64,000 nucleotides of DNA. It comes from Mayamaea pseudoterrestris (lineage: Eukaryota). Positions within the stretch are counted from its first letter, which is position 1; every line of letters begins with the position of its first letter. The stretch is from NCBI GenBank assembly GCA_027923505.1, contig BROI01000014.1, positions 248,001 to 312,000 on the forward strand. The letters are read 5' to 3'. The notes below the pieces were generated by a model that saw only the letters and a list, made by a program, of their open reading frames with translations, had not been told where the DNA came from and ran no database searches. Shown piece after piece: positions 3,705 to 46,431 of this stretch. The position numbers were made by a program, and so were the translations under genes.

Positions 3705-5550
3705 ATGGCGTCCCAACCGGAGCCTTCGACCGTTCCGCGGGAGGCGGCGGAACCGCCAAGCAAGATTATGAATGTAGATGAGCTTGTGTATGGATTCGAG
3801 TCCTTTCATGCCATTGTTCAACCAGGTACGTACTGATTTTGGCAAGTGGAACGATGAAAGAAGAGTAGGACGAGCACAGCTTCCGAGAGAAAAGATAGAA
3901 TACAGTCATCATCTCATCAAGTATCTCTCGTTTGCAGTCATAATAACCATGATATTATCATCACTTGCCGTCATTTACATCAACACTCCCGAGAGCCGAG
4001 CGGCTGGCGAACAAGCCATTTCGCACTACGCCGTCACTGGATCAGCTTCCGAGGCTGACTCCAACGGGGCCGCCCTTGGACAAGCCTTGGCAAATTCTCT
4101 TGTCATTGTTGGAGTCGTTTGTGGAGTAACCTTTTTGCTCGTGCTCTTGTACAAGTGGCGATGCATGAAGCTACTTATGGGCTACATGGTGCTGGCGTCG
4201 GCCATGCTGCTGGGGTACTTGGCGGGGGCAATGTGGAACTTTGCGATTCAAATTTATGGATTACATGTTGACAAGATTACATTTTACGTGGTAGTCTTTA
4301 ACTTTTGTTTGGTGGGTTGTGGGGCAATTTTCTATGGGAAAGGCATTCCCTTGACGGTGACGCAAGGCTACCTCGTGGCGTCGTCGGTGATTGTGGCCTG
4401 GCAATTTAGTTACTTTGATCCGTGGACTACGTGGTTGCTACTCATAATGCTTGCACTATACGACTTGTTTGCGGTACTCTCTCCCTGTGGTCCTTTGAAG
4501 GCACTGGTCAAGCTAATGCAGCGCGATAATGCACCCGCCATGCCAGGATTATTGTACGAAGCAAACGTTCAGGCTCGACGTCCGACGCGGCCCGACGGCA
4601 GCAGTACAACCGAAAATGCAAGCAATCCCAATGCCAATGCCAATGCCAATGCACAATCACAATTAACATGTCTGAGTCCCGTGCAACCGAATACATCGTC
4701 GCTTCAGGAGACCACATATGAAGACCCGGCGACGGTGAATGTTCGTTACAGCAACGGCCATTTGCTAAATGTCGGCGCTGATCCAACGACGACGAACACA
4801 ACCAGTGCTATTAGCGACCAGGCCTCTCGCACCAGTATAATGACCATGGCATCAACTGGTTTGGAAGCCGAAACTGCACGACAAACCTCTTTGGTCGCCG
4901 ACGCTGCCGCTTCACTTACACCCGACGAGCTCGAGTCGGGCGTCGCTGCTGCAGAATATATTCCACTCGCCCTTGCCAAGAGATACCGATTGCGTACAGT
5001 GGACGATCCTTGGCCAAGATGGATGCCGAATGAGGATGGTTCGCCTTGTGATGGTACCTTCACTGTCGAAGAGTTGCGGTCGCTTGTTCAGGTGCGATTT
5101 TCTCCTGGTGGCGGCCGCATTCAGGTGGCGGCTCCGCGACGGCCGAATGAAGAAAGCCGATACGAAATTTACGATCGCGAAGGCATTTTGAAGCGAGTCT
5201 TGTTTGTCAATGAGCAAGGCCAGGTATATCAAGACTTGCGTGGCCAAAATCCAGGGCACGATGAAGATGATGACGACAGTCGGAACAACATCAAACTAGG
5301 TCTCGGCGATTTCATCTTTTACTCGATCCTGGTTGCCAAAGCTGCCATGTATAGCTTCACGGCGTTTGCTTCTTGCTCCCTAGTTATATTGATCGGCCTA
5401 TTGGGAACACTGGTATTACTGGGCGTGTATGGCAAGGCGCTTCCCGCACTCCCGATTTCCATTTTCCTGGGTGTTGTTTTCTTCCTCCTCACGCGCTATC
5501 TCATGCAGCCGTGGATTGAAATGGTCTTCATACAGCAAAGCTATGTATAG
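3705..5550 (+). CDS. PSEN: Presenilin (gamma-secretase catalytic subunit, peptidase A22A); intron 3826-3937
   Basis: Catalytic ALYDLFAVL and KLGLGDFIFYS motifs, plus PALP. An upstream ATG at 3705 spliced via GT(3826)-AG(3937) gives ELVYGFESFHAIVQPVIITM, matching presenilin TM1. Confidence 0.93.
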
Positions 5551-19343: not shown

Positions 19344-19833
19344 AACTGCACTGCGTTTACTGTTGCTTGTAATTAATCAGTTCGTTTACCAAGTGTACTG
19401 GTCTTGCTGACAGGAGAAGTGGGTTTAACGCTTTGATGAAACTGCCATAAATTAGAAACAGCTAAAAATAATCCTTACAGGCTATTGGCTGTTTCATTGC
19501 AAGACCATGGTTAAGCACTTGACACATAGTGTGGCAGCGAATGGTAAATAATGGTCGTTGTCTCGTGGAGAGGACAGATACATAGCTAATGTGCGTGAGG
19601 TAGCGTTGCCGCCAATAACATACACACGACTGGATGCTCGTGAAAACACACACACGCACGATCGATCTTTCAGCATCAGCATCGAGCGCAGCAAGCCAGT
19701 CGAGCCCGACTTTCGTTGCTTATAATATAATATTCATGCAGCCGACTGATCGCTCCAACAAGGCATTCACAGGAGGACCATACATACCCTTCATCATCAT
19801 GCAGCGGTCATACGCCAGCACTGGAGCGGCGCG

Positions 19834-20103
19834 TGCTGAGAATCGGTGATTAAACAGGTGATCCTCAGTACTATGGCCTACATCCCAGGGCATTGGTAAA
19901 GATGCGGGATCGACTGGCTGCGTTGCAATGAACAGGACAGTTAGCTATAGAGACTCGGAGACACTCTTGGAGAGGTCAAGATTCCAAGAGTTACGGCGGT
20001 CGCTTAGGATAGAATAAGCTCACTCTTTTATAGCGGATCTTTTGCAAGCGAATAGGAGAGGTTTATATCGTAAATTACAAGTACATTTGGAGCAATCTCA
20101 GCA
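19834..20103 (+). repeat. 5' LTR of copia element
   Basis: 270 bp with TG..CA ends and an 8-bp terminal inverted repeat. Near-identical to 25219-25488 and 32469-32738 (one substitution seen near the start). Confidence 0.95.
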
Positions 20104-20138
20104 TACCTTAAGGTAGCCTCGGAGATACCCGAGTCAGC

Positions 20139-21161
20139 ATGGCTGAACCAGCCCAAGGAATCGTTCCTGCAAGGACTGACGAGGAGCGATGGAAAGATGA
20201 GCGCTGGAACAAGAAGCCTGCGGCGATCCCCAAGTTGGATAAAGACAAGAAGTTTTGGACTTGGAAGATGGAGATCGAGGCGTGGCAAGTTGCGCATGAC
20301 TTGGACAAGGTAATGGATCCAAGCGGATGGGCGGACCTGCCGACGCGAGAAGAACAGCCAAATCAATCGTACGCCAACAGGCGAGCCGTCAAGATGAACA
20401 AGGTAGCCATGGCGCAGTTAATCATGGCGCATGGCGACGGAGACAAGGGAGCGGAGTTCCTCTTGATCATTACGGAATCAAGGACGGAAGCGTGGCCGAC
20501 GGGCAAGGCAAGTGACGTCATGAAGAAGCTGATCGAACAATATCAGCCGACCGATCAAGTTGCCCAATTAAAGTTGATGGATGACCTTAGCAGTCTCTCG
20601 ATGCGAGACAGCCAAAATCCAACCAAGTTGTTCCTAAAGGTAGCAGAGCTGGAGAGCCGTCAAAGGCCAAAAGCTCGAGGAGCGTCAAGTCGTTCCTCAT
20701 ATCATCAAGGCCTTACCGGAGCGGTACAGCGGACGAGTGTCGGCCATGTTTGAAAAGCACAAGGAACTAACCAAAGCAATGATACGCGAAGGCGTAGAGG
20801 CAGAATATCGCCTCCAAGTGGCGAAAGGCGCCATCAAGGAAGACGACGATGAAGATGAAGATGAACAAGCTCTCTTTACTCAATCGTCGATCGGAAACCC
20901 CAAGGGCTGCTGGCTTTGCGGCAGCACAGAACACAAGAAGAAGGACTGCCCAAAGTATAAAGGGAACGGCGGCGGCGGCGGAGGCAACAGAAGCAGGTCG
21001 AAGAAAAGATTCCAAGGAACGTGCGACGAATGCGGAAAGCAAGGGCACAAGAAAGAAGACTGCTTTCATCTTGAGAAGAACGCCTCCAAGCGCCCCGCTT
21101 GGTTCAAGAAGATCTTGGAGAAGAAGAATGAGTCGGCAAATGTCACTTGTGACGACGAATT
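20139..21161 (+). CDS. Copia Gag (frameshifted near 20660-20750; interrupted by the TRIM at 21162)
   Basis: FWTWKMEIEAW gag N-terminus; zinc knuckles CWLCGSTEHKKKDC and CDECGKQGHKKEDC. Confidence 0.85.
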
Positions 21162-21837
21162 TAGCAGGTTGCACACGAAAAACAGCAACCAGAGCGATAC
21201 CTTTACTTGTCATAGTGCATGGTGCCTTGTATGCAGCATATAGTACACTAGCAGACGGAAAAGTAGCAGCGTGTTTAGAGGTGATATAGCCGGTTATCCT
21301 TGGTTCGATTCCGAGGTGCGCTACTTTTAACGGCATAGTGATACTACTTTCTGTTGCATACCTGCTATGGTAGCGTCCCTATCGAGAGATCTGGACTGAG
21401 GCTGCTGGTTCGAGTTGCGATCGAATCAAGCGAAGAAAAAGCAAAAATTCACTGGTTGCACGGGTTTGTCACGAACGAACGATGGGGAGTCGCGGACCCT
21501 GGGGAGTGCACAAAGATGCGCCGAGCCCGAAACGCCGCAGGAAAAACTGAAAAGTGACATTCCCCCGCGAGACGAAAATGCCAGCTGAAACGGAAGACGA
21601 GTTAGCACTATGACGCGCAAAGCTAGGGGAGTAGCAGGTTGCACACGAAAAACAGCAACCAGAGCGATACCTTTACTTGTCATAGTGCATGGTGCCTTGT
21701 ATGCAGCATATAGTACACTAGCAGACGGAAAAGTAGCAGCGTGTTTAGAGGTGATATAGCCGGTTATCCTTGGTTCGATTCCGAGGTGCGCTACTTTTAA
21801 CGGCATAGTGATACTACTTTCTGTTGCATACCTGCTA
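21162..21837 (+). mobile_element. 676-bp non-autonomous LTR element (TRIM-like) with a tRNA-like cassette in its LTRs, nested in copia gag-pol
   Basis: Direct repeats at 21162-21367 and 21632-21837 (206 bp, TAGCAGGT..ACCTGCTA). TSD AATT at 21158-21161 and 21838-21841. PBS-like TGGTAGCG at 21368; purine tract AGGGGAG abuts LTR2; 264-bp non-coding interior. Confidence 0.92.
21259..21328 (+). ncRNA. tRNA-like Pol III cassette inside the TRIM LTR (also at 21729-21798, 28472-28541 and 28942-29011)
   Basis: B box GGTTCGATTCC (21302-21312) in a T-arm CTTGG-TTCGATT-CCGAG. Flanked by a perfect 9-bp inverted repeat AAAAGTAGC/GCTACTTTT ending in T4. Too short for a full cloverleaf. Confidence 0.65.
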
Positions 21838-24800
21838 AATTCTTCATCATGGCAACCAAGGGCGTCGCGGAGGTCGACGACGAGTTGTGGTTTGCCGAAA
21901 CGGTGCACGAGCGCCATAACGAAGTCAAAAGAAGCAATGTATGAGACAAGGGCAGCAACAAGCGTCGATAAGATCAAAGTCGGGAACAGTGAATAGCGAC
22001 ATCCCGAGCTTGTTGGAAAGTTGCGAGGCACAATCGTGGATAAGGACGGCAAGAAGGTTGGAAACTTGTCGTTGGATCGAGTCAGTTACTCGGAGTCAGC
22101 CGCGGGCAACCTCATTCCAGTCGGAAAGATGATAAAGGAAGGTTGGACGCTGAAGCAGTCAATAGATGGACTAGAGTTAAGCAAAGGAAAGCGCAAGTTA
22201 GTCTTCGATGTGACGGCAAGTCGGCAGCGGAGTCTTCCACGCTATGCGAAGTCAAGAGGACGCCGACGACGGCAGAACAAGCAACAGTCGCGACAACGCA
22301 AACAGAGTCGTTTCTTACCAACAAGTGCATGAAGAGTTTGGCCACATGGGCAAAGCAGCGACTCGGCGACAGCGAAGCACTTAGGATGGACGCTAACTGG
22401 AAAGATGAATCCATCGTCTCTTCTTGCGTAGCGTAGGCGCGCCAGAAGGATATCGCTCGGAGACCAGCCGAGAAGGCAAAGACACTAGGACGGCGCATCT
22501 ACTTGGACTTGACACGCCACGAGATAAAAGAAGGCAAGAATCTGCCAGGCCAAGTTGAGCGGTCGATGCATCGTGGACGAGGCGACAGGATTCAAAGTTG
22601 TCGACTTCTTCGCAACCAAGAACGCAATGGTGGAACCAACCTGAACCTGCTTAGAGAATGGAAGCACAAAGGAAGGAGGTTGAGTTTTCTAGGATGGATA
22701 ACGCTGGCGAGAACAAGAGTCTTGAGGCAGCCAAGGCAGAGGGACTCGTCAAGCGCATTGAATGGACAGCGGCAAACACGCCGCAAACAGAACCTCAAGG
22801 CAAAACCTGCTGGCACACTCAAGGGCGTTCAAGAGCTATAGCATACAGAGCAAACGTACCAGAGAAGCAGAGGCAGAAGTTCTTTGGCCAAGGCTAGTAA
22901 AGCATGCTAGCAAGTTGGATGGACTCACCATGGTCGAGTTGAATGGGGAAATGAAAACACGCTATGAGCACTTCGAAAAGATTCCACGCTTTGTGAAGTA
23001 CATGAGGCGTTGGGGCGAGGCGTGCGTGCTGACGAAAGGTGTCAAGAAACCGGGAATGGAATTTGACAAAGGCGCGATCGGCATGTTGGTAGGCTTTCGG
23101 ATGACCATGAGGGGAGGACGTCTATCAAGTTTGGAATCCCAAGACGAATAGAGTTGCAGAGGTTAGAGATGTAACGTTCTAAACAAGTGATTTCCAAGAA
23201 ACGATCAAGGAGATAGCCGACTTAAAAAGGAGAAGGAAGGCATCGATTGGGATCTTGACACCCAGAGAGGTGCGACTCACACGCCGCCAGCGGCGTGAGG
23301 AAGAGGAGAGTGTCAATGGTGGCCGTGACAACGTGGCATCAGCAAACGAGCGAGCTGTCACAAAGATTGACCATGGGAAGGAAGAACAATAACTCGATCC
23401 GGCGTTGTAGTACCAGGCAACGATTGATCGGGCAAGAAGTGGCGCTGGCGTATCAGCTGGCGACCCAAGAATGCGTGTGGCGATGCTGGACTGTGAGCTT
23501 ACGCTCAACGGGCAATCATCGAGGAGATGGAGGAAGGCGAGTGCTACGCCCGGCGCCGCGCGGTCGCTCGTTGGCGCAGGGGATTGGCGATGGCCACATT
23601 GGGCGCATACATCAGAGCTACAATAAGGCAACGAAGTTCAACGAGGCAATGGCGAAGGGACCAGTCGCTGAATGGCAGAAGGCGGTTGACGACGAGCGAT
23701 GATCGATGCTCAAGTACAAATGCTTCAAAGAAATCCCACGCTCGCAGCTTCCTGAAGGAAGAAGCTGATCGACCACGACATGGGCAATGAAGCAAAAAGG
23801 CATACGGAACAAAGCGAGCAAGAATGGCTGGTCAGGGTCCAGCAGATCGAAGGAGTCCATTGCGATCCCAAGTCGGTGTCGGCGCCTGTCGTGAATCTAT
23901 CGACGACGCGCATCATGTTGGTATTGATGTTGATGGCACGCTGGGACGACGCACATTGTCGACGTGCGAGGGAGCATTCTTGCAAGGCAAGTTCAACGAT
24001 GAAAAGATTTACATTAAGATACTACAAGGATTCGAAAAGCATTATAAAGCAGACAGCGTGTTGCAGCTGTTGGCGCCAGTGTACGGATTGATACAAGCGG
24101 CGTACTGTTTTCTATTTGGTGTTGGTCAGGCGTTCGACAACAAGGATACGGAAGGAGCAAGGCCGATCCATGCCTCTATTATCAATGGGGGGTTTACAAG
24201 GATTACATCTTTGGTCGAGTCATACGGATGACTGCTTCGTCGGAAAGGATATCATCACAGAAGAACAAATTCATGAGCGAACTCGACTTGCGAGGACATT
24301 GGCGAGTTGAAAGAGCACATCGGCTGCAAGATCGATATCAACAAGGAAGAAGGATGGTTGTAAGATAACTCAACTGATGGCAATTCAAAGACTCAAAGAC
24401 GGTTCAATATACCCGACGAGGCTCGATGAGGAGAGGCTTCCGGCGTCACCGGGAAGCAAGTTAAAGAGCGACGAAAACAATCGTTGGAGCGCAGGAGCAT
24501 CACAAGTTTCTCCAGCGGCGTTGGCATTGTTCAATGGATTAAAAGAGGCTCGAAAGACCGAGATAAGCAACGCTGTTAGAGACGTTGCGAAGGCGTCTAC
24601 CAAGGACAGGGCGCGTGAGCGAACCATCGAATCATGCGCTACCTACGCGAGGACTCCGGAGCGTGGACTCGTCCTCCAAGCCATCGAGGCAATGGGATGG
24701 CACACCAAGCTTTAAGTTCAGATTGAAAGTGATTACGGACTCATCATACGCGTCGGATCCAGACACAAGAAGGAGTCCAGGAGGCTACAGCACGTTTCTA

Positions 24801-25218
24801 GAGGGGCCATTCGTTCAATACCCTCAAAGATGCAAGACTTTGTCACGCTGTCGCCCACGGAGGCGAGTTAGTGGAGATGACGAACGGAGCGCGCGAGCTG
24901 TTGAGCCACAAGCGTTACTGGGAGTCGATTGGATTACAAGTCGAGCTCCCAATGAAAGTTATAGGAGACAACAAGGGCGCGTTTGATCCTAACGAACAAT
25001 TGGTCTGACGGCCGGCAAGACGCGTCATATTCGATGCGATATTATTCCTTCGAGAGTTGAAGGAGGAAACGATTATAGACATTGAATGGATTGGAACCGA
25101 CGACAATTGCGCCGATATCTTTACAAAGAATCTGGGCGTGAAGGCGTTTAACAAGCACGCAAAGGTGTTCGTCGGCGACGATGAGTACTTTGAAGATTAA
25201 GTACATCGGATCAGGGAG

Positions 25219-25488
25219 TGCTGAGAATTGGTGATTAAACAGGTGATCCTCAGTACTATGGCCTACATCCCAGGGCATTGGTAAAGATGCGGGATCGACT
25301 GGCTGCGTTGCAATGAACAGGACAGTTAGCTATAGAGACTCGGAGACACTCTTGGAGAGGTCAAGATTCCAAGAGTTACGGCGGTCGCTTAGGATAGAAT
25401 AAGCTCACTCTTTTATAGCGGATCTTTTGCAAGCGAATAGGAGAGGTTTATATCGTAAATTACAAGTACATTTGGAGCAATCTCAGCA
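25219..25488 (+). repeat. 3' LTR of copia copy 1
   Basis: 270 bp, preceded by a short purine tract and followed by the GCGCG TSD. Confidence 0.95.
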
Positions 25489-26156
25489 GCGCGTACGCTC
25501 CACTTTCAATGCTCGATTCGTGTCCTAGCAAACATTGCAGCGCTGCCGTTCAAACAGCTTCAACAACGGCAACAAGAGCCACCGACAGACCCACTATTCC
25601 AGAGCTCGAACACTACTAGTGGCAGGACCAGTACTTTCGCATAACCACGAAGATTTCATTGCCGTCTTTGACCATGGTGTCAAGGCGATTGCTTCGCATC
25701 GCTCAGCGATATCGATAAACTTTTACATGATCGTTTGCGTCCATACTAAGGCGGTGACCAAAACTGTCCGCCATCGGAAACAATATTTTCGTCGGAGCAA
25801 GTACTTGTTGCCATTCAGCAGGAACTCAAGCAACGTATCGATATTTGCTTGCTGCGTGATGACCGGCTCGACCGTTGATTGTCGTGCGACTCGAATCAAG
25901 CCACCTTGTTGATCGCATGGACTCCGCGTTTATCGAAATTGGGGTAGCAAAACACCTGCATTCTCAAAGGGTTTGAGAGCCCACATTATACTGCCTGATG
26001 CCTGAGCCTGAGTGGATTTTTACACGATTTTGATTTTGCTTGAGGAGCATTACATGGTGTTTATAAAGACAAGCATAATGAAGTATGGAAGATTTGAATG
26101 ATTATAGCAAACAATGACTGATTATATACAGACCATTGTTTCTTTGCCAAGTATAC

Positions 26157-26603: not shown

Positions 26604-27177
26604 GATTAAGTTTGTAACTGGTGAACTGTTGGATGATCGGCAGTACTCCGTTAAGATGATGTGAGGGGAAAGAAAAACAAACCATCGAGCGACGATTTCC
26701 ACCTCGGACAAGTTGCTTTCGCTGACGCTCCCTGACAATTGTCCGTCAGTCACGAGGGTTATATCATAGTCGTGTATTTTTATTAGGCATATGTCATTCG
26801 GACAATATATATTTGTACATTGATAAACGGTGGGGAAACGCATCTCATTTAATCTAAAAGTCACTTTAACTACTCGTCGGAAATTACCATTGTGGCACTC
26901 CGAGAATCCCAAGATCCTCGGCGACACTCAAGAATTATCACGAAAACGAAAGTAACGACGGTAAACTCGCAGAGACACCTACGTCATTCGACGTCATTCA
27001 TGGATGACATCATTCTTGTCGCATCAGCAGCACAATTAAGTTCGAGGAGGAATTCAACCACACTCGTTGTATCGTCTCTTCCCTCTACAAAGACTCTGTA
27101 TTTCATTCACTTACGGGAGAAAGGAGTTGCAGTGGCTGTTCAAGTTTAAATCGGCACCAAAACTTGCCGTCAAGGAT

Positions 27178-30100
27178 ACACTCTTGGAGAGGTCAAGATT
27201 CCAAGAGTTCCGGTGGCGTACATGGATGAATAAGCTCACTCTTTTACTCTTGGATCTTTTGCAAGCGAATAGGAGAGGTTTATATCGTAAATTACAAGTA
27301 CATTTTGAGCAATCTCAGCATTACCTTAAGCTGTAGCCTCAGAGATACCCGAGTCAGCATGGTGAACCGGCCCAAGGAATCACCAAGGACTACGAGGAGC
27401 GAGTTGGAAAGATGAAGGCGGAACAAGAGCCTGGCCGCGATCCCCAAGTTGGATAAAGACAAGAGTTTTGGACTTGGAAGATGGAGATCGAGGCGGCAAG
27501 GGAGTTGCGCATGACTTGGACAAGGTAATGGATCCCAAGCGGATGGGCGGACCTCCCCGACGCGGGAAGAACAGCCAAATCAATCGAATGCAACAACAGG
27601 CGAGCCGTCCAAGATGAACAAGGTAGCCATGGCGCAGTTAATCATGGCTCATGGCTTAACGGAGACAAGGAGCGGAGTTCCTCTTGATCTTACGGAATCA
27701 AGGACGGAAGCGTACGACGGCGCAAGTGGCAAGTGATCGTCATGAAGAAGCTGATCGAACAATATCAGCCGACCGATCAAGTTGCCCAATTAAAGTTGAT
27801 GGACTGCAACCTTAGCAGTCTCTCGTGCGAGCCAAATCCAACCAAGTTGTTCCTAAAGGTAGCAGAGCTGGAGAGTCAGTTTCTAGCGTCGGGAGCAAAG
27901 CTCGAGGCGTCAAGTCGTTCCTCATATCATCAAGGCCTTACGGACCGGTACAGCGGACGAGTGTCGCCATGTTTGAAAAGCACAAGGAACTAACCAAAGC
28001 AATGATACGCAAGGCGTAGAGGCAGAATATCGCCTCCAAGTGGCGAAAAGGCGCCATCAAGGAAGACGACGATGAAGATGAAGATGAACAAGCTCTCTTT
28101 ACTCAATCGTCGATCGGAACCCCAGGGCTGCTGGCTTTGCGCACGCAGAACACAAGAAGAAGGACTGCCCAAAGTATAAAGGAACGGCGGCGGCGGCGGA
28201 GGCAACAGAAGCAGGTCGGAAAAAAGATTCCAAGGAACGTGCGACGACGCAGAAGAGGCACAAGAAAGAAGACTGCTTTCATCTTGAGAAGAACGCCTCC
28301 AAGCGCCCCGCTTGGTTCAAGAAGATCTTGGAGAAGAAGAATGAGTCGGCAAATGTCACTTGTGACGACGAATTTAGCAGGTTGCACACGAAAAACAGCA
28401 ACCAGAGCGATACCTTTACTTGTCATAGTGCATGGTGCCTTGTATGCAGCATATAGTACACTAGCAGACGGAAAAGTAGCAGCGTGTTTAGAGGTGATAT
28501 AGCCGGTTATCCTTGGTTCGATTCCGAGGTGCGCTACTTTTAACGGCATAGTGATACTACTTTCTGTTGCATACCTGCTATGGTAGCGTCCCTATCGAGA
28601 GATCTGGACTGAGGCTGCTGGTTCGAGTTGCGATCGAATCAAGCGAAGAAAAAGCAAAAATTCACTGGTTGCACGGGTTTGTCACGAACGAACGATGGGG
28701 AGTCGCGGACCCTGGGGAGTGCACAAAGATGCGCCGAGCCCGAAACGCCGCAGGAAAAACTGAAAAGTGACATTCCCCCGCGAGACGAAAATGCCAGCTG
28801 AAACGGAAGACGAGTTAGCACTATGACGCGCAAAGCTAGGGGAGTAGCAGGTTGCACACGAAAAACAGCAACCAGAGCGATACCTTTACTTGTCATAGTG
28901 CATGGTGCCTTGTATGCAGCATATAGTACACTAGCAGACGGAAAAGTAGCAGCGTGTTTAGAGGTGATATAGCCGGTTATCCTTGGTTCGATTCCGAGGT
29001 GCGCTACTTTTAACGGCATAGTGATACTACTTTCTGTTGCATACCTGCTAAATTCTTCATCATGGCAACCAAGGGCGTCGCGGAGGTCGACGACGAGTTG
29101 TGGTTTGCCGACAACGGGTGCACGAGCGCCATAACGAAGTCAAAAGAAGCAATGTATGAGACAAGGGCAGCAACAAGCGTCGATAAGATCAAAGTCGGGA
29201 ACAGTGAATACGTACATCCCGAGCTTGTTGGAAAGTTGCGAGGCACAATCGTGGATAAGGACGGCAAGAAGGTTGGAAACTTGTCGTTGGATCGAGTCAG
29301 TTACTCGGAGTCAGCCGTCGGCAACCTCATTCCAGTCGGAAAGATGATAAAGGAAGGTTGGACGCTGAAGCAGTCAATAGATGGACTGGAGTTAAGCAAA
29401 GGAAAGCGCAAGTTAGTCTTCGATGTGACGGTACAAGTCGGCAGCGGAGTCTTCCACGCTATGCGAGTCAAAAGGACGCCGACGACGGCAGAACAAGCAA
29501 CAGTCGCGGCAAACGCAAACAGAGTCGTTTCTTACCAACAAGTGCATGAAGAGTTTGGCCACATGGGCAAAGCAGCGACTCGAGCGACAGCGAAGCACTT
29601 AGGATGGACGCTAACTGGAAAGATGAATCCATGCGTCTCTTGCGGCGTAGCGAAGGCGCGACAGAAGGATATCGCTCGAAAGGAGCCAGCCGAGAAGGCA
29701 AAGACACCAGGACGACGCATCTACTTGGACTTGACGACGCCAAAGGATAAAGAAGGCAAGAATCTGCCAGGCAAGTTGAACGGTCGATGCATCGTGGACG
29801 AGGCGACAGGATTCAAAGTTGTCGACTTCTTCGCAACCAAGAACGCAATGGTGGAACCAACCTTGAACCTGCTTAGAGAATGGAAGCACAAAGGAAGGGA
29901 GGTTGAGTTTCTAAGGATGGATAACGCTGGCGAGAACAAGAGTCTTGCGAGGCAAGCCAAGGCAGAGGGACTCGTCAAGCGCATTGAATGGACAGCGGCA
30001 AACACGCCGCAACAGAACCACAAGGCAGAAACCTGCTGGCGCACACTCAAAGGGCGTTCAAGAGCTATAGCATACAGAGCAAACGTACCAGAGAAGCAGA

Positions 30101-32738
30101 GGCAGAAGTTCTTTGCAAGGCTAGTAAAGCATGCTAGCAAGTTGGATGGACTCACCATGGTCGAGTTGAATGGGGAAATGAAAACACGCTATGAGCACTT
30201 TGGCGGAAAAAGATTCCACGCTTTGTTAAGTACATGAGGCGTTAGGGAGCGGGCGTGCGTGCTGCGAAAGGTGTCAAGAAACCGGGAATGGAATTTGACA
30301 AAGGCGCAGTCGGCATGTTGGTAGGCTTTCCGGATGACCATGAGGGAGACGTCTATCAAGTTTGGAATCCCAAGACGAATAGAGTTGCAGGAGTTAGAGA
30401 TGTAACGTTCCTAAACAAGTGGTATTTCCAAGAAACGATCAAGGAGATAGCCGACTTAAAGGAGAAGGAAGGCATCGATTGGGATCTTGACACCCCAAGA
30501 GGTGCGACTCACGACGCGCAAGCCAGCGACAGTGAGGAAGAGGAGAGTGTCAATGGTGACGTTGACAACGTGGCATCAGCAAACGAGCGAGCTGTCACAA
30601 AGATTGACCATGGGGAAGGAAGAACAATAACTCGATCCGGGCGTTGTAATACCAAGGCAACGATTGATCGAAGCAAGTAACGCTGGCGTATCAGCTGGCG
30701 ACCCAAGAATGCGCGTTGGCGATGCTGGACTGTGAGCTTACGCTCAACGCGGCAATCATCGAGGAGATGGAGGAAGGCGAGTGCTACACGCCGGCGCGCG
30801 ACGAGTTAGCGCTCGTTGGCGCAGGGATTGGCGATGGCATTGCGCATACATCAGAGCTACAAGTAATGAAGTTCAGCGAGGCAATGGCGAAGGGACCAGT
30901 CGCTGAATGGCAGAAGGCGGTTGACGACGAGCATGATCGAATGCTCCAAGTACAAACGCTTCAAAGAAATCCCACGCTCGCAGCTTCCTGAAGGAACGAA
31001 GCTGATCGACACGACATGGGCAATGAAGCAAAAGGCAAACGGAACAAAGCGAGCAAGAATGGCGGTCAGGGGATTCCAGCAGATCGAAGGAGTCCATTAC
31101 GATCCCAAGTCGGTGTCGGCGCCTGTCGTGAATCTATCGACGACGCGCATCATGTTGGTATTGATGTTGATGGCACGCTGGGACGCGCACATTGTCGACG
31201 TGCGAGGAGCATTCTTGCAAGGCAAGTTCGAAAACGATGAAAAGATTTACATTAAGATACCACAAGGATTCGAAAAGCATTATAAAGCAGACAGCGTGTT
31301 GCAGCTGTTGGCGCCCATGTGTACGGATTGATACAAGCGGCGTACTGTTTCTATTTGGTGTTGGTCAGAGCGTTCGACAACCAAGGATACGGAAGGAGCA
31401 AGGCCGATCCATGCCTCTATTATCAATGGGGCGAACAAGGATTACATCTTTGGTCGAGTCATACGGATGACTGCTTGTCGGCCGGAAAGGATATCATCAC
31501 AGCGAAGAACAAATTCATGAGCGAACTCGACTGCGAGGACATTGGCGAGTTGAAAGAGCACATCGGCTGCAAGATCGATATCAACAAGGAAGAAGGATGG
31601 TTGAAGATAACTCAACCAGTCGCAATTCAAAGACTCAAAGACGAGTTCAATATACCCGACGAGCTCGATGAGGAGAGGCTTCCGGCGTCACCGGGAAGCA
31701 AGTTAAAGAGCGCGGGAAACAATCGTTGGAGCGCAGGAGCATCACGAGTTTCGCAGCGGCGTTGGCATTGTTCAATGGATTAAAAGAGGCTCGAGACCAG
31801 AGATAAGCAACGCTGTTAGAGACGTTGCAAGGCGTCTACAAGGACCAACGGAAGCGCATGTGAAAGCGAACCATCGAATCATGCGCTACCTAACGAGGAC
31901 TCCGGAGCGTGGACTCGTCCTCAAGCCATCGAGGCAATGGGATGGCACACCAAGCTTTAAGTTCAGATTGAAAGTGATTACGGACTCATCATACGCGTCG
32001 GATCCAGACACAAGAAGGAGTCCAGGAGGCTACAGCACGTTTCTAGAGGACGCGCCAATCGTTCAATGCTCAAAGATGCAAGACTTTGTCACGCTGTCGC
32101 CCACGGAGGCGGAGTTAGTGGAGATGACGAACGGAGCGCGCGAGCTGTTGAGCCACAAGCGATTACTGGAGTCGATTGGATTACAAGTCGAGCTCCCAAT
32201 GAAAGTTATAGGAGACAACAAGGGCGCGTTTGATCTAACGAACAATTGGTCGACGGCCGGCAAGACGCGTCATATTGACGTGCGATATTATTTCCTTCGA
32301 GAGTTGAAGGAGAAAAAGATTATAGACATTGAATGGATTGGAACCGACGACAATTGCGCCGATATCTTTACAAAGAATCTGGGCGTGAAGGCGTTTAACA
32401 AGCACGCAAAGGTGTTCGTCGGCGACGATGAGTACTTTGAAGATTAAGTACATCGGATCAGAGGAGAGTGCTGAGAATTGGTGATTAAACAGGTGATCCT
32501 CAGTACTATGGCCTACATCCCAGGGCATTGGTAAAGATGCGGGATCGACTGGCTGCGTTGCAATGAACAGGACAGTTAGCTATAGAGACTCGGAGACACT
32601 CTTGGAGAGGTCAAGATTCCAAGAGTTACGGCGGTCGCTTAGGATAGAATAAGCTCACTCTTTTATAGCGGATCTTTTGCAAGCGAATAGGAGAGGTTTA
32701 TATCGTAAATTACAAGTACATTTGGAGCAATCTCAGCA
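27178..32738 (+). mobile_element. Ty1/copia retrotransposon, copy 2 (5' LTR truncated)
   Basis: Protease WFADNGCT; IN HEEFGH..CVSC and RMDNAGEN; RT VRGFQQIEG, DVRGAFLQG, YGLIQAA and HTDD; RNase H TDSSYA..RHIDVRYYFLRE..ADIFTKNL. 3' LTR at 32469-32738 follows PPT AGAGGAGAG. Confidence 0.93.
28375..29050 (+). mobile_element. TRIM-like element, second occurrence (within the duplicated block)
   Basis: LTRs at 28375-28580 and 28845-29050 with TSD AATT; appears identical to 21162-21837. Confidence 0.92.
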
Positions 32739-33200
32739 GCGCGTACGCTCCACTTTCAATGCGCGATTCTCGTCCTACGTAGCAAACATTGCTGCGCTGC
32801 CGTTCAAACAGCTTCAACAACGGCAACAAGAGCCACTTACAGACCCATTATTCCAGAGCTCAAAAATTACTAGTGGCAGGACCAGTAATTTGCGCATAAC
32901 CACGAAGATGTCATTGCCGTCTTTGACCATGATGTCAAGGCGATTGCTTCGCATCGCCCAGCGAAATCGATAGCCTTTTACATGATCGGCGTTCGCGTCC
33001 ATGGCTGAAGTGGTGGCCAAAACTGTCCGCCATCGGAAACAATGTTTCGTTGGAGCAAGTACTTGGTGCCGTTCGGCAGAACTCAAGCAACGTACGATAT
33101 TTGCTTACTGCGTGATGACCGGCTCGACCGCTGATACTCGTGCGACTCAAATCAAGCCACCTTGCTACTAGGCAGTGCAACACGAAGCTTGTCACTCCAT
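32739..33200 (+). pseudogene. 3' part of local family member 3, disrupted by the copia insertion (5' part 19799-19833)
   Basis: Translation across the empty site reads MQRSYASTGAARTL…IIPELKNY*WQDQ*FAHNHEDVIAVFDHDVKAIASHR, matching the PEL..W.D..F..IIAVFDH motif of the 17154 and 18366 genes. Confidence 0.65.
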
Positions 33201-36835: not shown

Positions 36836-37193
36836 TATAGAGATAGTATGAACGATATTGCAGCGAGATGAACGGGGAACGATGAGTATCGAGGATTGGT
36901 GCAGGAATTTCGAAGCAAGCGTGACAACTTCATGTTGATCGTGCTGGCTCTGGCTTTCGAAAAGGTCATCCGTGTTCAGTCGTGTCGTAGCGGTTATGTC
37001 ACGTTTGAGTACCGCAGCGACAAAATATAAGTACCGCAACGACGCGACAATCCAATGCGTTCGTCTTCCACCATGACGCGCCCATCATTATGGCCGCACA
37101 TTGCACGCCCATTTAGCACCTTTAAAGCCCATGGAGCACCTGCTATAGGTCTATTTATAATCGTATCTTCTTCTCGTCAATCAGTTTCACATA

Positions 37194-39698
37194 ATGTCAA
37201 TTCACATTTTACCAGCAGAAGTCGTGAATCGCATCGCCGCCGGCGAAGTGATACAAAAACCATCCAACGCCATTAAGGAATTGATTGAAAATTGTCTCGA
37301 CGCTGGCGCGACTAGCATTTCCATCACCATGGAGGCAGTTGATTGCTGGACTGTGTCCGACAATGGCAAAGGCATGTCGCCCGACGACTTGCAGCTGGCG
37401 GCGACGCGTCACGCCACGAGCAAACTGTCCAGCACCAACGACTTGCACACGCTGGAGAGCTTTGGCTTTCGCGGCGAGGCGCTCGCCTCCATGAGCATGT
37501 GCTCGCACTTGAGCATTGTCAGTCGACATTGTGACGCGCGCGTCGGCTACAAGCAAACGTATGTCAACGGCGCTCCCTGCAGCGACCAGCCGCAGCCGTG
37601 CGCGCGTCCGCCAGGAACGACGGTGCGCATGGACCAGCTCTTTTACAATTTGCCGCACCGGCGCAAAACAAACGCGAGTAGTGAATCCTATCACCAAGTG
37701 CTGAGCATGCTGCAGTCGTACGCTATATTGGTGGCGCAGAACGGTACGAGCATCGTTTGTCAGAAAAATGGGCGCAATAACACCAAGGTGGACTTGAACT
37801 CGGCCGCCGCCGTGTTGCACTGCAACCAACATTCCAGCAAGGAGATCAAGGCCACTGCCACCAAGCAAGTGTTGCAGCAAGTCTATGGGAGTCAAATGAT
37901 TCCGTATCTTTGCGAATTTGAGAGTGACATGGACGAAACGCTTGCTGCAAGTGCAAATGCAAAACTGGATTCTGACGAAACCACGCTCCGCCACCAGCAA
38001 TGCACCTACACTTGCCATGGCTTTGTGACATCTCCCTCGTACACGCAAAACAAAAAATCTACATTCATACTATTCTGCAATCAACGCTTGGTCGAGTGCA
38101 GTTTCTTGAAGCGCGCCATGGAGTCCGTCTACGCGGAACATTCCAAAGCCAAACCCTTTATATATTGGTCCCTTCACGTGCCGCCGCACCAAGTCGACGT
38201 GAACGTTCATCCCACCAAGCGACAAGTGACGCTGCTGCATTTGAACGAAATTAGCATGCATTTGCAGCAAGCGTTGCGCGCGCTGCTGCAGCGACAAAAG
38301 CAGGCGTTTGAGAGTCAATCGGTCATGCAGCAGTCGCAGCAACTCAAGCGCAAGCGCGACGTGGAACATGAAAACGACAACGACGACGACGAATCCAGTG
38401 TCAAAGGAGCAGCCACCGCAACCAGTAGTGTACAAACACAACTATCATATGGTCAATCCGTTGCCTCGTCCAGTCAGCAGTCAACGGCAAGTGTTTCCAA
38501 GCTTGCGCCGTCCAAGCTGATTCGCACCAATCGGTCGTTTCAGCACGGGTCCATGGAACCCTTTGTCAAAATGACGACGACGAATCCATCACAGTTGCAT
38601 TCTCAACGTTTCGACAAGGATTCGACGTCATCAGAAAGTGCCGAGCTAGATAGTGAGCTGCAAAATGAAGGAGCAACAGGAGCAAATGATGCAACAAACA
38701 ATAGTGCCGACTCGCAGCTACATCAGCCTGACTGTCCCCTCCTAGCAACCTCCACCAATGGCACTGCAGACTTGAATCTGCCCGGTGCGTTTGCAAAGGT
38801 GGCTGCCTCCTGCACATGCCGCAGTAACAACTCTCGGATAGAGGTGGTTGATCCATTGGCCGTGCGAGTGCCCCCAAAGCAAACGTATCCGTCACAGCTT
38901 CCGCGCAAAATTCAACCGTCGGAATGTAAGCTCAAGTCAATACTGAGCTTGAGAAGAGGTATTTACAATCAAGCTGCCGATCCTGCAATCGTATCGCAAT
39001 TGCGTTCCTCCTGCTTGGTAGGAGTCGTGTCCCACACACGCTGCATTTTGCAGTGCGGCGCCGACTTGGTACTTTTGAACTACTACGACTGTGCCTGCGA
39101 GCTGTTCTATCAACTGTCGCTGCTGCAGTTTGGAGCGCTCCGCGTTGCCAAACTGGGTGTGCCGGTGGATGTCACCAAAGTCATTGGACAGTTTCTAGAG
39201 CTGGAGGATCAATTGCTACACGAAACCGAGGAGGAGCATTTCGAACATTCAATCACGCTGCTCAATGTCTCGGAAACGAACAAGTCTGTGGCTGCCCAAG
39301 CTGCCTCATTTTTGATGGAAAAGTCAGCCATGCTAAAGGAGTATTTCTCAATTGTCGTCGAAACGAACAATGCCGGCTGCATTTTGCTAACTGGTTTGCC
39401 CATTTTGCTTCAAGGTCACGCACCATCTCCCCATGGCGTTGCCTTGTTTCTCTTGCGGCTGACGACCGAAGTCAACTTTGTCAAGGAAAAGCGCTGCTTT
39501 CAAGGCATCAGTCGCGAGCTGGGACTGTTTTACGCTAGCGTTGCCGCCACGGATGAATCTGCCTGGCACTCTTTGGTGCGACACTGCTTGTTTCCTGCCG
39601 TTTCAACTCTGCTCGTGCCTTCCAGAGCCACGGCAGCGGAAAGTATGAAAACCGTTGGCAACCTTTCGCAACTATACAAGGTATTTGAAAGGTGCTGA
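37194..39698 (+). CDS. MLH1: DNA mismatch repair protein MLH1
   Basis: NRIAAGEVI..KELIENCLDAG, GFRGEALAS, VDVNVHPTK and the C-terminal LYKVFERC signature. Confidence 0.96.
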   Translation: MSIHILPAEVVNRIAAGEVIQKPSNAIKELIENCLDAGATSISITMEAVDCWTVSDNGKGMSPDDLQLAATRHATSKLSSTNDLHTLESFGFRGEALASMSMCSHLSIVSRHCDARVGYKQTYVNGAPCSDQPQPCARPPGTTVRMDQLFYNLPHRRKTNASSESYHQVLSMLQSYAILVAQNGTSIVCQKNGRNNTKVDLNSAAAVLHCNQHSSKEIKATATKQVLQQVYGSQMIPYLCEFESDMDETLAASANAKLDSDETTLRHQQCTYTCHGFVTSPSYTQNKKSTFILFCNQRLVECSFLKRAMESVYAEHSKAKPFIYWSLHVPPHQVDVNVHPTKRQVTLLHLNEISMHLQQALRALLQRQKQAFESQSVMQQSQQLKRKRDVEHENDNDDDESSVKGAATATSSVQTQLSYGQSVASSSQQSTASVSKLAPSKLIRTNRSFQHGSMEPFVKMTTTNPSQLHSQRFDKDSTSSESAELDSELQNEGATGANDATNNSADSQLHQPDCPLLATSTNGTADLNLPGAFAKVAASCTCRSNNSRIEVVDPLAVRVPPKQTYPSQLPRKIQPSECKLKSILSLRRGIYNQAADPAIVSQLRSSCLVGVVSHTRCILQCGADLVLLNYYDCACELFYQLSLLQFGALRVAKLGVPVDVTKVIGQFLELEDQLLHETEEEHFEHSITLLNVSETNKSVAAQAASFLMEKSAMLKEYFSIVVETNNAGCILLTGLPILLQGHAPSPHGVALFLLRLTTEVNFVKEKRCFQGISRELGLFYASVAATDESAWHSLVRHCLFPAVSTLLVPSRATAAESMKTVGNLSQLYKVFERC

Positions 39699-40717: not shown

Positions 40718-40938
40718 GATGATTGGGGTTTTGTTTGCTTGTTTTGTGCGAGCGAAAGAAAAAAACGCACGGACGGCTGCGACGCGTGTCACGCTGTGCA
40801 TGTCGCAGCAGTACCCAACTGTCGTTCCGGCACTCGCATGTTGGCGACCGCCAATTTGTTCGCTTCCTTCTCCAATATTACACACTGCTTGCTTCATGTA
40901 CCCACATAAATTTGACTGGCAAATTGAAATAGTTAAGA

Positions 40939-43848
40939 ATGAGACGTATCATACGACGTTACCATGTTCCGCGTGGGGTGGATCGAGCTTTGCCGCAGCG
41001 ATCTGCCTCCTTCACGCCAAGGAATGGTGTACTGCATCCATTCACAAGAACAATGCAACAATATTCGACTTGTAATCGGCAAAGGCATATACAATTTTCA
41101 AGCTCCGCTGCTGCAATTATGGAAGACGATTTGAGTCATACGAACGACGAAACCAAGCCGCCAAGCAACCTTTCCTTTGCCAGATTCATCGACGGCCCTC
41201 CACTGCAGCTGGGACTTGGTTCGTTCGGCAAGCACGCGGCTGCTTCCGTCGTTGGCATGGCTGGATCAACGGTAGTGTCAACGACGCTGTGCCGCGACGA
41301 AACGAGCATGAGCAGTGATCACTATAGCAATGGCACCTTGCTGACGGTGGACGTGCGGCTGCGGGCGCACGGGGTGGGGCGCATGCCGATGAATCGCACG
41401 CGCCGGGACTACGGCGTCATGAGTGACGTTGAAGTCTTGGCGTCGCGGGCCGTAGACCGAGCGCTGCGGCCGTTGCTGCTGCCACGAAACAGTATGATGA
41501 CTGGTGAATATAGCAACGGATTGACATCCGGCGGTCGCATGCACGTGCAGTCGGTGGTACAATCCTACGACAAGTCGGGACGTTTCGATGACGCAAGCGG
41601 ACATCCAGTTGCAACCAGCATCAACACTGCCTCCGCTGCACTGTATGATTATTTGATCGAGCCAGTCGCAGCGACGAGTCTATGCCTCATGCGCGCGTCG
41701 GATCTATCGGCTGGTAGTGGTGGTGGAATCGTCGCAACAACACCTCCAGCGCAGGACCAGCAACTCGTCATTGTCCAGGACGCATCTCCAGCGCAGATGC
41801 AAGACTCGCTGGGTCAATTGCTGCTGGCGGGCACCCGCGACAAGATTGTCATGATGGAATGGTCCAGTCACGGCAGTCACAATGCAGGATTGCCGGAGGA
41901 GCAGTGGGAGGCGCTGCTAAAAGTCGGCATGGCGGCGTTGCAACCAGTTTTGGATTCCATGGAGCAGTTGCACGAGTTAAAGACGCAGCGGGAGGAAACG
42001 GAAGCTGCTGAGAATGATTCAATGGACGACGAAGCTGTTCGAGTTAGTCTTGGTTTGGATCAAGTTGTATCGAGTGAGACATTGACGACGGACGAGGTCA
42101 CGGAAACGGCCGTACTAGCCGCTGGACTATCCAACGAAGACAGAGATTTGTTGCTAGCCAAGGCCTTGGATGTTTGCGCCTTGAAACTAAAAAATGCACT
42201 TGGCAGGTTGTTTGGTGTTAGTGGATCATGCCAACCTCCTTTAATATGTAGGAAGCGAGAAGCGTTGATGCATCAATCTGGCAATCTACTTTCAAAGTCA
42301 TTTCGCGGAGCTCGAGAAACGGTAATGCAAAACGAAGTGAAACGGCTTGTAAACGACATTGCTGACGAATTGGGCTACACATTGACTCCATTCGATAGAT
42401 CGTGGTTATACGACGAGGTTATCAAAAAGTTGTTCGAAGGTGCATTGTGGGCGTCAGTCAGTGACTATGGAGCTCGCGCAGACCAGCGCGGAAAGCCGGG
42501 GGCAGGTTGGAAAACCATTCGCCCAATCCAGAGCCAACCGGCGGCCTTGCCCGATACAGTTCATGGATCAGCACTATTTGCAAGGGGCCAGACGCAAGTG
42601 CTCAGCACGGTGACGCTCGCGCCTCCATCGGAAGGTTTTGTGCGAGCGAACCCGTACGATGTAACGGAGGAAATGAAACCAACGACATCACAGGGCAATA
42701 CACCATATTCATCCCTGCCGGTAGGGTCGCTTCGCTTCCTGCGCAACCAAGAGGCACTGTCATCAGACATGAACTCCAAAAAAGTGCAAGCCGAACGAGA
42801 GCCCACTGGTGCTTCAGGGAATTTGTCGGAGCTCAAGCGTGCGTTTCTGCAGTATGACTTTCCTAGCTACTCGACTGGCAAGGTTCCGGAAGGAAACCAG
42901 GCAAACAAGCGTCGGTCGATTGGCCATGGCAATCTGGCAGAGCGTGCCATTCTGCCAGTGCTTCCTTCGCCTGAGCAATTTCCATATGCCATTCGCATGA
43001 CGAGTGAAGTGACGGACTCGAATGGTAGCAGCAGTATGGCGAGTGTTTGTGGAGTCACCATGGCGCTGCTGGATGCTGGTGTGCCCCTCTTGATGCCAGT
43101 CGCCGGAATTAGCGTGGGAGCAGTTACTTCCGGTGATAAGTACGCGCTCATGTTGGATATCACAGGGACGGAAGATTATTACGGTGCGATGGACTTGAAA
43201 GTAGCAGGGACGCCGTTGGGTGTGACTGCATTGCAACTGGATGTCAAACAACCGCTTTCAGTGCAAGTAATTGTTGACGCCTTGTACTTGGCCCAACGTG
43301 GGCGGCAATCGATACTGCAAGAAATGCAAGCTCAGTCAATGAATCTTGGCGGTCTAAAGCCGCGCGCCGAGCTCAAAGAGTCTGCTCCCCGCGTGGAGGT
43401 TATTCATTTCGACCCCCAACGCAAGCGCGACGCTGTGGGACCCGGTGGAATCGTCCTTCGTCAAATTGAAGACCGATATGGCGTTTCTCTTGACTTGACA
43501 CAAGAAGGAAGATGCCTTATCTTTGGATCAAGTCGTGACATGGTGCAGAAGGCAAAGATAATTATAATGGATCTTGTGTCAGACGTCGCGATTGGAGACG
43601 TCTACATGGGAACCGTGATAGAGGTCAAGGATTTCGGGGCAATCATCGAATTGTTAAGGAACAAGGAGGGTCTGCTGCATGTAAGCGAAATAATAGGCGA
43701 AGGAGATCCAGGAAGCCACCCGCAAGGTTTGTCCGGATATGTACGCCAGCGTCTGAATATAGGTCAACAGGTTGAGGTCCAAGTCATTAGCATTGATCCG
43801 GTGCAAGGAAGTATCAAACTGAGCATGAAACATTTGGCCGGAAAGTAG
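40939..43848 (+). CDS. PNP: Polyribonucleotide nucleotidyltransferase (organellar PNPase)
   Basis: HGSALFARGQTQ, RRSIGHGNLAERA, SNGSSSMASVCG and DITGTEDYYGAMDLKVAG, plus KH and S1 domains. Confidence 0.93.
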   Translation: MRRIIRRYHVPRGVDRALPQRSASFTPRNGVLHPFTRTMQQYSTCNRQRHIQFSSSAAAIMEDDLSHTNDETKPPSNLSFARFIDGPPLQLGLGSFGKHAAASVVGMAGSTVVSTTLCRDETSMSSDHYSNGTLLTVDVRLRAHGVGRMPMNRTRRDYGVMSDVEVLASRAVDRALRPLLLPRNSMMTGEYSNGLTSGGRMHVQSVVQSYDKSGRFDDASGHPVATSINTASAALYDYLIEPVAATSLCLMRASDLSAGSGGGIVATTPPAQDQQLVIVQDASPAQMQDSLGQLLLAGTRDKIVMMEWSSHGSHNAGLPEEQWEALLKVGMAALQPVLDSMEQLHELKTQREETEAAENDSMDDEAVRVSLGLDQVVSSETLTTDEVTETAVLAAGLSNEDRDLLLAKALDVCALKLKNALGRLFGVSGSCQPPLICRKREALMHQSGNLLSKSFRGARETVMQNEVKRLVNDIADELGYTLTPFDRSWLYDEVIKKLFEGALWASVSDYGARADQRGKPGAGWKTIRPIQSQPAALPDTVHGSALFARGQTQVLSTVTLAPPSEGFVRANPYDVTEEMKPTTSQGNTPYSSLPVGSLRFLRNQEALSSDMNSKKVQAEREPTGASGNLSELKRAFLQYDFPSYSTGKVPEGNQANKRRSIGHGNLAERAILPVLPSPEQFPYAIRMTSEVTDSNGSSSMASVCGVTMALLDAGVPLLMPVAGISVGAVTSGDKYALMLDITGTEDYYGAMDLKVAGTPLGVTALQLDVKQPLSVQVIVDALYLAQRGRQSILQEMQAQSMNLGGLKPRAELKESAPRVEVIHFDPQRKRDAVGPGGIVLRQIEDRYGVSLDLTQEGRCLIFGSSRDMVQKAKIIIMDLVSDVAIGDVYMGTVIEVKDFGAIIELLRNKEGLLHVSEIIGEGDPGSHPQGLSGYVRQRLNIGQQVEVQVISIDPVQGSIKLSMKHLAGK

Positions 43849-46087: not shown

Positions 46088-46431
46088 AATAAATGTGTAA
46101 TAATTGTAAATTGATATGTGATTTTACTTCAATGTAGCAGTAACGAGGCCGCTCCTTGTACAGCTCTGATGAAAAAGAAAATCGGATCCGCTAACTTGTG
46201 TGGTCATGGTCGTCTCTGCGCGCGCGCCTTCCAGTACCGTTCCGATATGCCTGGTTTCTGTTTGCGCGCGCCAGCCGCGCAATCCGGTACCGATGCGATA
46301 CGCAACAGCTTGCAATTTGGCGCGTGACAACCATGGCGATTGCATGACGTAGCGGTCTACAAAAGTACCAGAAGTTTTAAACGACGAGTAGCTCCTTTCT
46401 TATAACAGTTGGCATTTACAACAAAGCCAAG

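Follow-up and report, generated by a model that had tools for sequence, protein, structure and literature searches.

A putative Helenus-type retrotransposon of a diatom-like stramenopile with a decayed tRNA gene in each long terminal repeat

The DNA studied here is a 64-kb stretch of contig BROI01000014.1 (positions 248,001 to 312,000 of the forward strand), which is called the window throughout; all coordinates count from its first letter. At 21162..21837 it contains a terminal-repeat retrotransposon in miniature (TRIM) of 676 bp, and a tRNA-gene-like unit is found once in each of the two long terminal repeats (LTRs) of this element. We consider it reasonably probable, with much room left for doubt, that the element is a Helenus-type TRIM ('TRIMp3') of a diatom-like stramenopile, in which each LTR holds a decayed tRNA gene that keeps the type-2 RNA polymerase III (Pol III) signals, namely an A box, a perfect B box and a run of four T (T4). 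Helenus is the name given to TRIMs of <1000 bp with tRNA-derived sequence in their LTRs (Kojima 2024, PMC10886601).

The TRIM and all its parts lie on the plus strand. It consists of a 5' LTR (21162..21367), a 264-bp internal part and a 3' LTR (21632..21837), and was recorded as direct repeat D1. Each LTR is 206 bp long, and the 3' LTR is 100% identical to the 5' LTR over 206 nt. The LTR termini are 8-nt inverted repeats, TAGCAGGT...ACCTGCTA. A target-site duplication (TSD) of 4 bp, AATT, flanks the element on the left (21158..21161) and on the right (21838-21841). The primer-binding site (PBS), TGGTAGCGTCCC at 21368..21379, is located directly 3' of the 5' LTR. The polypurine tract (PPT; 21620..21631, core AGGGGAG at 21625-21631) adjoins the 3' LTR, upstream of which the purine tract reads ...AAGCTAGGGGAG. 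Open frames across the TRIM are stop-to-stop artefacts, and a search of the protein collection in the 39-126 aa class gave no candidate for a stop-free minus-strand LTR frame of other copies. With LTRs, PBS, PPT and TSD in place, and with an empty site in contigs, the first-pass annotation of this DNA was right in placing the unit within the LTRs of a TRIM.

This empty site was found when contigs from four public runs (X1, X3, X4 and X5) were compared with window positions 20900-22100. Runs X1-X4 may stem from the same source as the window, and X5 is from a second study. In X1 and X3 there are contigs in which 21157 is joined directly to 21838, with 680 bases missing and 4 letters shared at the joint; they read as uninterrupted host sequence with a single AATT. 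Because the empty site is present in these contigs, the TRIM is a discrete insertion. All four runs have contigs of 453-500 nt that show 0 differences from the TRIM in their aligned parts, and in one X3 contig (record 7) an unrelated left flank is joined exactly at the LTR start. Word depth of TRIM contigs exceeded that of flank contigs in X1 (38.8 vs 4.56), X3 (15.6 vs 2.3) and X5 (871 vs 3.4-3.8); this depth is not a copy number and was used only as a hint of repetition. The TRIM is multi-copy and has been mobilised, with copies at different sites. The X5 contig that matches the TRIM omits the A-rich tract at 21426-21442. We noticed that this tract of the internal part (21426-21447) is variable, the main form in X5 being a longer A run, accompanied by several minor forms. 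A divergent LTR copy was also present in X1 (record 3), with 14 differences in 127 nt followed by non-PBS sequence; it may represent a solo LTR or a related family. It is part of a low-depth divergent LTR subfamily (X1 records 2 and 3; 21221-21368) that is ~89-90% identical over the tRNA-like part and, as judged by eye, less alike farther upstream.

Type-2 Pol III genes, such as tRNA genes, are laid out as an A box, a B box and then a T run. The tRNA-gene-like unit of the 5' LTR is 82-83 nt long (21242..21324). At 95-98% of the default threshold (-ps, -ps97 and -ps98), ARAGORN drew it as a cloverleaf with a long variable arm and labelled it 'tRNA-?(Stop|Leu)(ttag)', with a 4-base anticodon. 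In this drawing the acceptor stem (AGTACAC/GTGCGCT) has 6/7 pairs, tRNA positions 8-9 are TA, the D arm has a 4-bp stem with one mismatch, the anticodon arm is weak and has an 8-nt loop, the variable arm has a 4-bp stem, and the discriminator base is A. The T arm (CTTGG/TTCGATT/CCGAG, 21299-21315) is built of five pairs, one of them G-T, and includes the B box GGTTCGATTCC (21302..21312). An A-box-like motif, TAGCAGACGGA (21249..21259), occupies tRNA positions 8-18 of the ARAGORN cloverleaf. It reads TAGCA..CGG (21249-21258), where TRGC and YGG fit the box A of Helenus and the fifth base is A instead of Y. The B box starts 53 nt downstream of the A box start. Two bases after the acceptor 3' strand there is a T4 run (21325..21328), a candidate Pol III terminator, and the unit therefore resembles a copy of a gene or precursor, not of a CCA-tailed mature tRNA. 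In the 3' LTR the unit is found at 21712-21794 and the T4 run at 21795-21798.

The first-pass annotation had described a tRNA-like Pol III cassette at 21259-21328. The B box, the T arm, TGTTTAGAGG, the T4 run and a 9-bp inverted repeat (AAAAGTAGC, 21259-21267, vs GCTACTTTT, 21320-21328) are all present there, and a tRNA-gene-like module in the LTRs was upheld by ARAGORN and by shuffled controls; its extent and its A box had to be revised. The unit had been thought about 14 nt too short for a cloverleaf. This impression arose because its start had been set too far 3', and a full 83-nt cloverleaf, in place of a truncated unit of 56-70 nt, is drawn by ARAGORN from 21242. As an A box, the candidate proposed at first, TGTTTAGAGG (21272-21281), is inferior to TAGCAGACGGA. 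The stretch AGCAGCG, taken for the 5' part of an initiator-like tRNA, falls in the D and anticodon stems in the ARAGORN register. The hexamer TAGCAG occurs 3 times in each 206-bp LTR, at 21162 (the terminus), 21249 (the A box) and 21264 (the 3' strand of the D stem); 12 of the 33 occurrences on the plus strand of the whole window are within the four LTRs described below. A partial internal duplication of the 5' part of the tRNA is a possible origin of these repeats.

At -ps98, ARAGORN gave exactly 4 matches in the 64-kb window, one per LTR. The unit is present once in each of four identical 206-bp LTRs, two of which belong to a second TRIM copy. These four occurrences are not independent, because one LTR sequence was copied by retrotransposition and then by segmental duplication. 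As a control, ARAGORN was run on 60 dinucleotide-shuffled windows (3.84 Mb, both strands) and reported 0 matches at -ps98, 3 at -ps and 57 at -ps90. With at most 1 mismatch allowed, the B-box 11-mer matched in the four LTRs only. This motif count alone is weak evidence, because a shuffled window averages 1.1 matches. When the T arm (17 nt) was kept and either the rest of the LTR or the rest of the unit was shuffled, -ps98 was reached by 20/3000 and 25/3000 sequences, respectively. Among 200000 shuffles that preserved the T arm, 68749 had an acceptor stem of 6/7 pairs or more, 680 had this stem together with TRGC at positions 8-11, and 8753 had T4 within 4 nt. The acceptor stem, TRGC and T4 appeared jointly in 25/200000. 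Because the joint layout is rare in shuffles that keep the T arm, the parts outside this arm add real evidence. The complete tRNA-gene layout is a strong signal, and chance is an unlikely explanation for it.

If the element is a Helenus-type TRIM with a Pol III promoter in its LTRs, TFIIIC would bind the B and A boxes and Pol III would start near 21235-21242. Some transcripts would pass the weak T4 of the 5' LTR, run through the PBS and the T-run-free internal part, and end at the T4 of the 3' LTR, which would give a product RNA of ~560 nt. In such an RNA the tRNA-like unit would act as R, with U3 at 21162-21241 and U5 at 21329-21367. On the sense strand of the TRIM there are only two runs of at least four T, one per LTR at the unit ends, and nine runs of at least four A. 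In the model published for TRIMp3 the Pol III start is placed just upstream of the tRNA-like unit, and Pol III transcription is untested for Helenus itself (PMC10886601). Reverse transcription of the RNA would rely in trans on proteins from an autonomous element with the same LTR end, PBS and leader, and would be primed by a tRNA with a 3' end complementary to the PBS. Contigs of 5.4-6.3 kb (X1, X3 and X4) match the TRIM at 21343-21378, which comprises the last 25 LTR nt and the PBS, with 4 differences; by eye, they also match part of the leader after the PBS. For 30 nt upstream of 21343 these contigs do not resemble the TRIM. In X5, loose ends of this kind were seen at both boundaries of 21343-21378. 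We take the 5.4-6.3 kb element as a candidate autonomous partner that appears to lack the tRNA-like unit at the corresponding place of its LTR.

Several results weigh against a retained Pol III promoter, or against a tRNA origin of the unit as such. ARAGORN reported nothing at its default, at which the whole window was scanned, nor at -ps98.5 and tighter. Three Rfam scans, of 801, 86 and 104 bases, the last of which covered the whole unit, produced no match to the tRNA model at E<=10. BLAST against the phage collection matched annotated tRNA-Ile and tRNA-Phe genes over 19-25 nt of the T arm only (E = 0.9-3). None of these matches is significant, and the one to tRNA-Phe genes (E = 3) spans 19 nt at 100% identity. 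In the cloverleaf 22/25 pairs are standard, 6 of those being G-T, and there are 3 mismatches. It was assigned +1.8 kcal/mol, vs a minimum free energy (MFE) of -21.0 kcal/mol for another fold of the same 87 nt (21242-21328). The A box deviates from the consensus. In the divergent LTR of X1 (record 3), two positions of the B box (21307 and 21312) and two of the T run (21325 and 21327) are changed, so that this one divergent copy gives no sign of preferential box conservation. The lack of further T runs is not significant given the composition (135 A vs 95 T between the T4 runs; P ~0.2), and transcription through the element requires a leaky terminator in the 5' LTR. A functional tRNA gene was rejected: the unit fails default ARAGORN and Rfam, has an 8-nt anticodon loop, and its cloverleaf is energetically disfavoured. 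The unit is a decayed tRNA-gene relic, not a working tRNA, and any RNA transcribed from it would not be a tRNA.

Decay of this kind would also be seen if a tRNA gene, a pre-tRNA copy or a tRNA-derived short interspersed nuclear element (SINE) had landed in the LTR of a TRIM driven by RNA polymerase II and were now decaying there, without a role in transcription or transposition. The degraded cloverleaf (3 mismatches and 6 G-T in 25 pairs, +1.8 kcal/mol), the silence of Rfam, the imperfect A box and the mutated B box and T run of the divergent copy all suit such a passenger. However, a perfect B box and T arm beside decayed other arms is the pattern expected where a promoter is kept and tRNA function is lost. 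The sense strand is without a further T run of at least four, and the unit was kept identical in runs from two studies. The same pattern in Helenus was read as promoter conservation, there too an untested reading (PMC10886601). We treat a passenger relic as possible, but on the unlikely side.

The fold that is preferred over the cloverleaf raises another explanation. The MFE fold of 21242-21328 (-21.0 kcal/mol) is a hairpin with a 9-bp closing stem, and the unit might be a 70-nt structure, made of this stem and an inner hairpin, that would aid strand transfer or packaging as part of the R region; the B box would then be coincidental. The 70-nt fold of 21259-21328 reaches -20.6 kcal/mol with z = -2.24, and 2/200 shuffles were as good. 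Weak matches to hairpin-type Rfam models (mir-728, 15.2 bits, E = 2.1) point the same way; together with sno_ncR3 (16.4 bits) they were the other Rfam matches to the unit region, and were discarded as clearly spurious. The 9-bp inverted repeat that had been taken to close the unit is present but not statistically compelling: perfect inverted repeats of 9 bp or longer, spaced within 120 nt, arose in 208/5000 shuffled LTRs, which makes it only mildly unusual. A hairpin of non-tRNA origin is also at odds with the tRNA-gene layout around the T arm, which was seen in 25/200000 shuffles, and with the ARAGORN call, which was seen in 0/60 shuffled windows. We consider this explanation very improbable.

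A further reading links the unit to the primer. The primer end implied by the PBS is ...GGGACGCTA (before CCA), and the unit ends in ...GGTGCGCTA. The two 3' ends are identical at 7/9 positions, the last five included, which may reflect shared descent, PBS masking or chance. The unit could have been copied from the tRNA that primes the element, or could mask the PBS by a 7-bp helix, or could self-prime after CCA addition. Positions 21317-21323 could form a 7-bp duplex with the PBS (-9.8 kcal/mol), and simple arithmetic puts the chance of five contiguous matches in a fixed register at ~1e-3. The ARAGORN model has A1:T72. An A1:U72 pair with a U72/A73 end is typical of eukaryotic initiator tRNAs, and the U72/A73 end of the putative primer tRNA presumably makes it initiator-like. 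Against such a link, the likeness was noticed after the fact, only 8 contiguous bases are complementary even with CCA included, and the MFE fold of the leader does not contain the helix. The unit has the T loop of an elongator, and its long variable arm misfits an initiator as these tRNAs are commonly understood. In addition, no such complementarity was found in Helenus (Kojima 2024, PMC10886601). A primer link of any of these kinds is very unlikely in our view. We give just as little credence to its fullest form, in which the unit would descend from the same initiator-like primer tRNA and its RNA would pair with the PBS, gating annealing, or self-priming after CCA addition. If true, the TRIM would itself supply a part of the machinery for its replication, a feature that was sought and not found for Helenus (PMC10886601).

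The second TRIM copy (28375..29050, plus strand) is 100% identical to the first and has its tRNA-like units at 28455-28537 and 28925-29007. The first copy is inserted in a Copia-type element (19833..25488, plus strand; LTRs at 19833-20103 and 25218-25488), where it sits in the gag region and interrupts the gag-pol frame. The second copy is found at the same site within a second copy of this host element. Indeed, a tandem duplication with a unit of ~7.2 kb, comprising the host Copia element and flank, relates 19957-25908 to 27174-33164 at 94% identity. Copy 2 is thus the same insertion as copy 1, carried along by duplication of its host. The two duplicated units are gap-free and identical over 21044-21898, a stretch that takes in the TRIM with 118 bp of flank on one side and 61 bp on the other, and the remainder differs by several percent; the 3' LTR of the Copia element is also 100% identical between them. 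Such identical stretches within a 94% duplication look like conversion tracts, and may also be an effect of the assembly. The Copia LTRs are 271 bp long and 99.6% identical, and a 5-bp TSD, GCGCG, was identified by eye. Two CCHC knuckles are encoded in gag, as read from the translation, and a Pol_BBD Pfam match was obtained in the duplicated copy. The host Copia element is not the partner of the TRIM, because the PBS regions differ. We noticed that the sequence 3' of its 5' LTR does not start with TGG; this element may use an internal site of its primer tRNA.

The other genes of the window include long, intron-poor frames for a hybrid histidine kinase (731-2995), presenilin (3778-5550), MLH1 (37161-39698), a PNPase-like protein (40933-43848) and an ERG4/24 sterol reductase (46381-47865). 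This is the gene content of an ordinary nuclear, diatom-like genome. The highest-identity matches of the MLH1 frame were at 57-59%. Its best relatives among named taxa were diatoms, including Phaeodactylum, Cylindrotheca, Nitzschia, Seminavis, Thalassiosira, Cyclotella, Fragilaria and Pseudo-nitzschia, at 33-41% identity, and green algae, oomycetes and animals scored below the diatoms. On this homology the host is best read as a diatom or a close relative, and so as a stramenopile, as the first-pass annotation had assumed.

A report of tRNA-carrying TRIMs, mentioned in that annotation, exists and covers fungi, animals and one plant, Selaginella (PMC10886601). It defines TRIMs by two LTRs, a PBS, a PPT, a TSD of 4-6 bp, a length of <1000 bp and no coding capacity, gives the Helenus boxes as TRGCY...YGG (A) and GGTTC (B), and assigned similarity to tRNA or SINE2 by Censor and tRNAscan-SE (PMC10886601). 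The present TRIM has the Helenus architecture and has tRNA-like sequence in its LTRs, the latter as determined by ARAGORN with controls, and it is set beside Helenus by description, not by sequence. It resembles Helenus as a short TRIM with two LTRs, a PBS and a PPT, and its 4-bp TSD is that of animal Helenus; a 4-bp TSD is also given for the diatom element Blackbeard in a passage of PMC2806351. Further points of likeness are a sense-oriented tRNA-like sequence in the LTR with box A (TRGC...YGG, its fifth base apart) and box B GGTTC, a tRNA-like part that is not a functional tRNA, and a candidate autonomous partner that has the PBS region in common and not most of the LTR. In contrast to Helenus, the element belongs to a diatom-like stramenopile, its tRNA part has decayed further and has no Rfam match, the 3' end of the unit resembles the primer end deduced from the PBS, and the LTRs have TA...TA as termini.

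Other small retroelements share single aspects of this design. Cassandra and Ajax likewise have the promoter of a Pol III small-RNA gene within TRIM LTRs, but there the segment is derived from 5S rRNA, whereas here it is a tRNA-like module with A and B boxes. Membership in Cassandra/Ajax was rejected, as the Rfam scans gave no 5S match at E<=10. The tRNA-derived SINEs (SINE2) are non-autonomous retroelements in which, likewise, a decayed tRNA head provides the A and B boxes of an internal Pol III promoter. In the TRIM, however, this head lies inside the LTRs and is followed immediately by T4 instead of a body and tail, and with its PBS and PPT the element would be copied by LTR-type machinery. 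Retrozymes are alike in being small non-autonomous LTR elements with a structured RNA module in the LTRs; membership was rejected, as no hammerhead match was obtained at E<=10 in 21100-21900 (Rfam). A metagenome scan that used a 21-nt piece of the unit as query found one match, to a GC-rich contig. The surrounding 4 kb had no tRNA call, and the match was put down to chance. In viral contigs there were 0 matches for a query of LTR end and PBS, and 0 for a query of degenerate T arm and acceptor.

Table 1 of Kojima 2024 lists Basidiomycota, six animal phyla and Selaginella as hosts of Helenus and no stramenopiles, and the words oomycete, stramenopile, Phytophthora, Saprolegnia and diatom are absent from its main text (PMC10886601). 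No report of a tRNA-carrying TRIM in a stramenopile was found in the full-text library searched, which excludes subscription journals, Repbase and the supplements of Kojima 2024. A recent preprint on diatom transposable elements has no passage on TRIMs, SINEs or tRNA. The element would extend a recently described, probably polyphyletic kind to a new supergroup, and the general principle is unchanged. TRIMs with small-RNA promoters were known from plants (Cassandra, with 5S) and, since 2024, from fungi, animals and one lycophyte (Helenus and Ajax) (PMC10886601). An example from diatoms would bring in a second supergroup of eukaryotes and would support a repeated origin of such elements. For annotators it would be a caution that tRNA-like matches in diatom genomes can be LTR copies. 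With a length of ~0.7 kb, the element would also be well suited for testing whether Pol III can make the genomic RNA of a retrotransposon.

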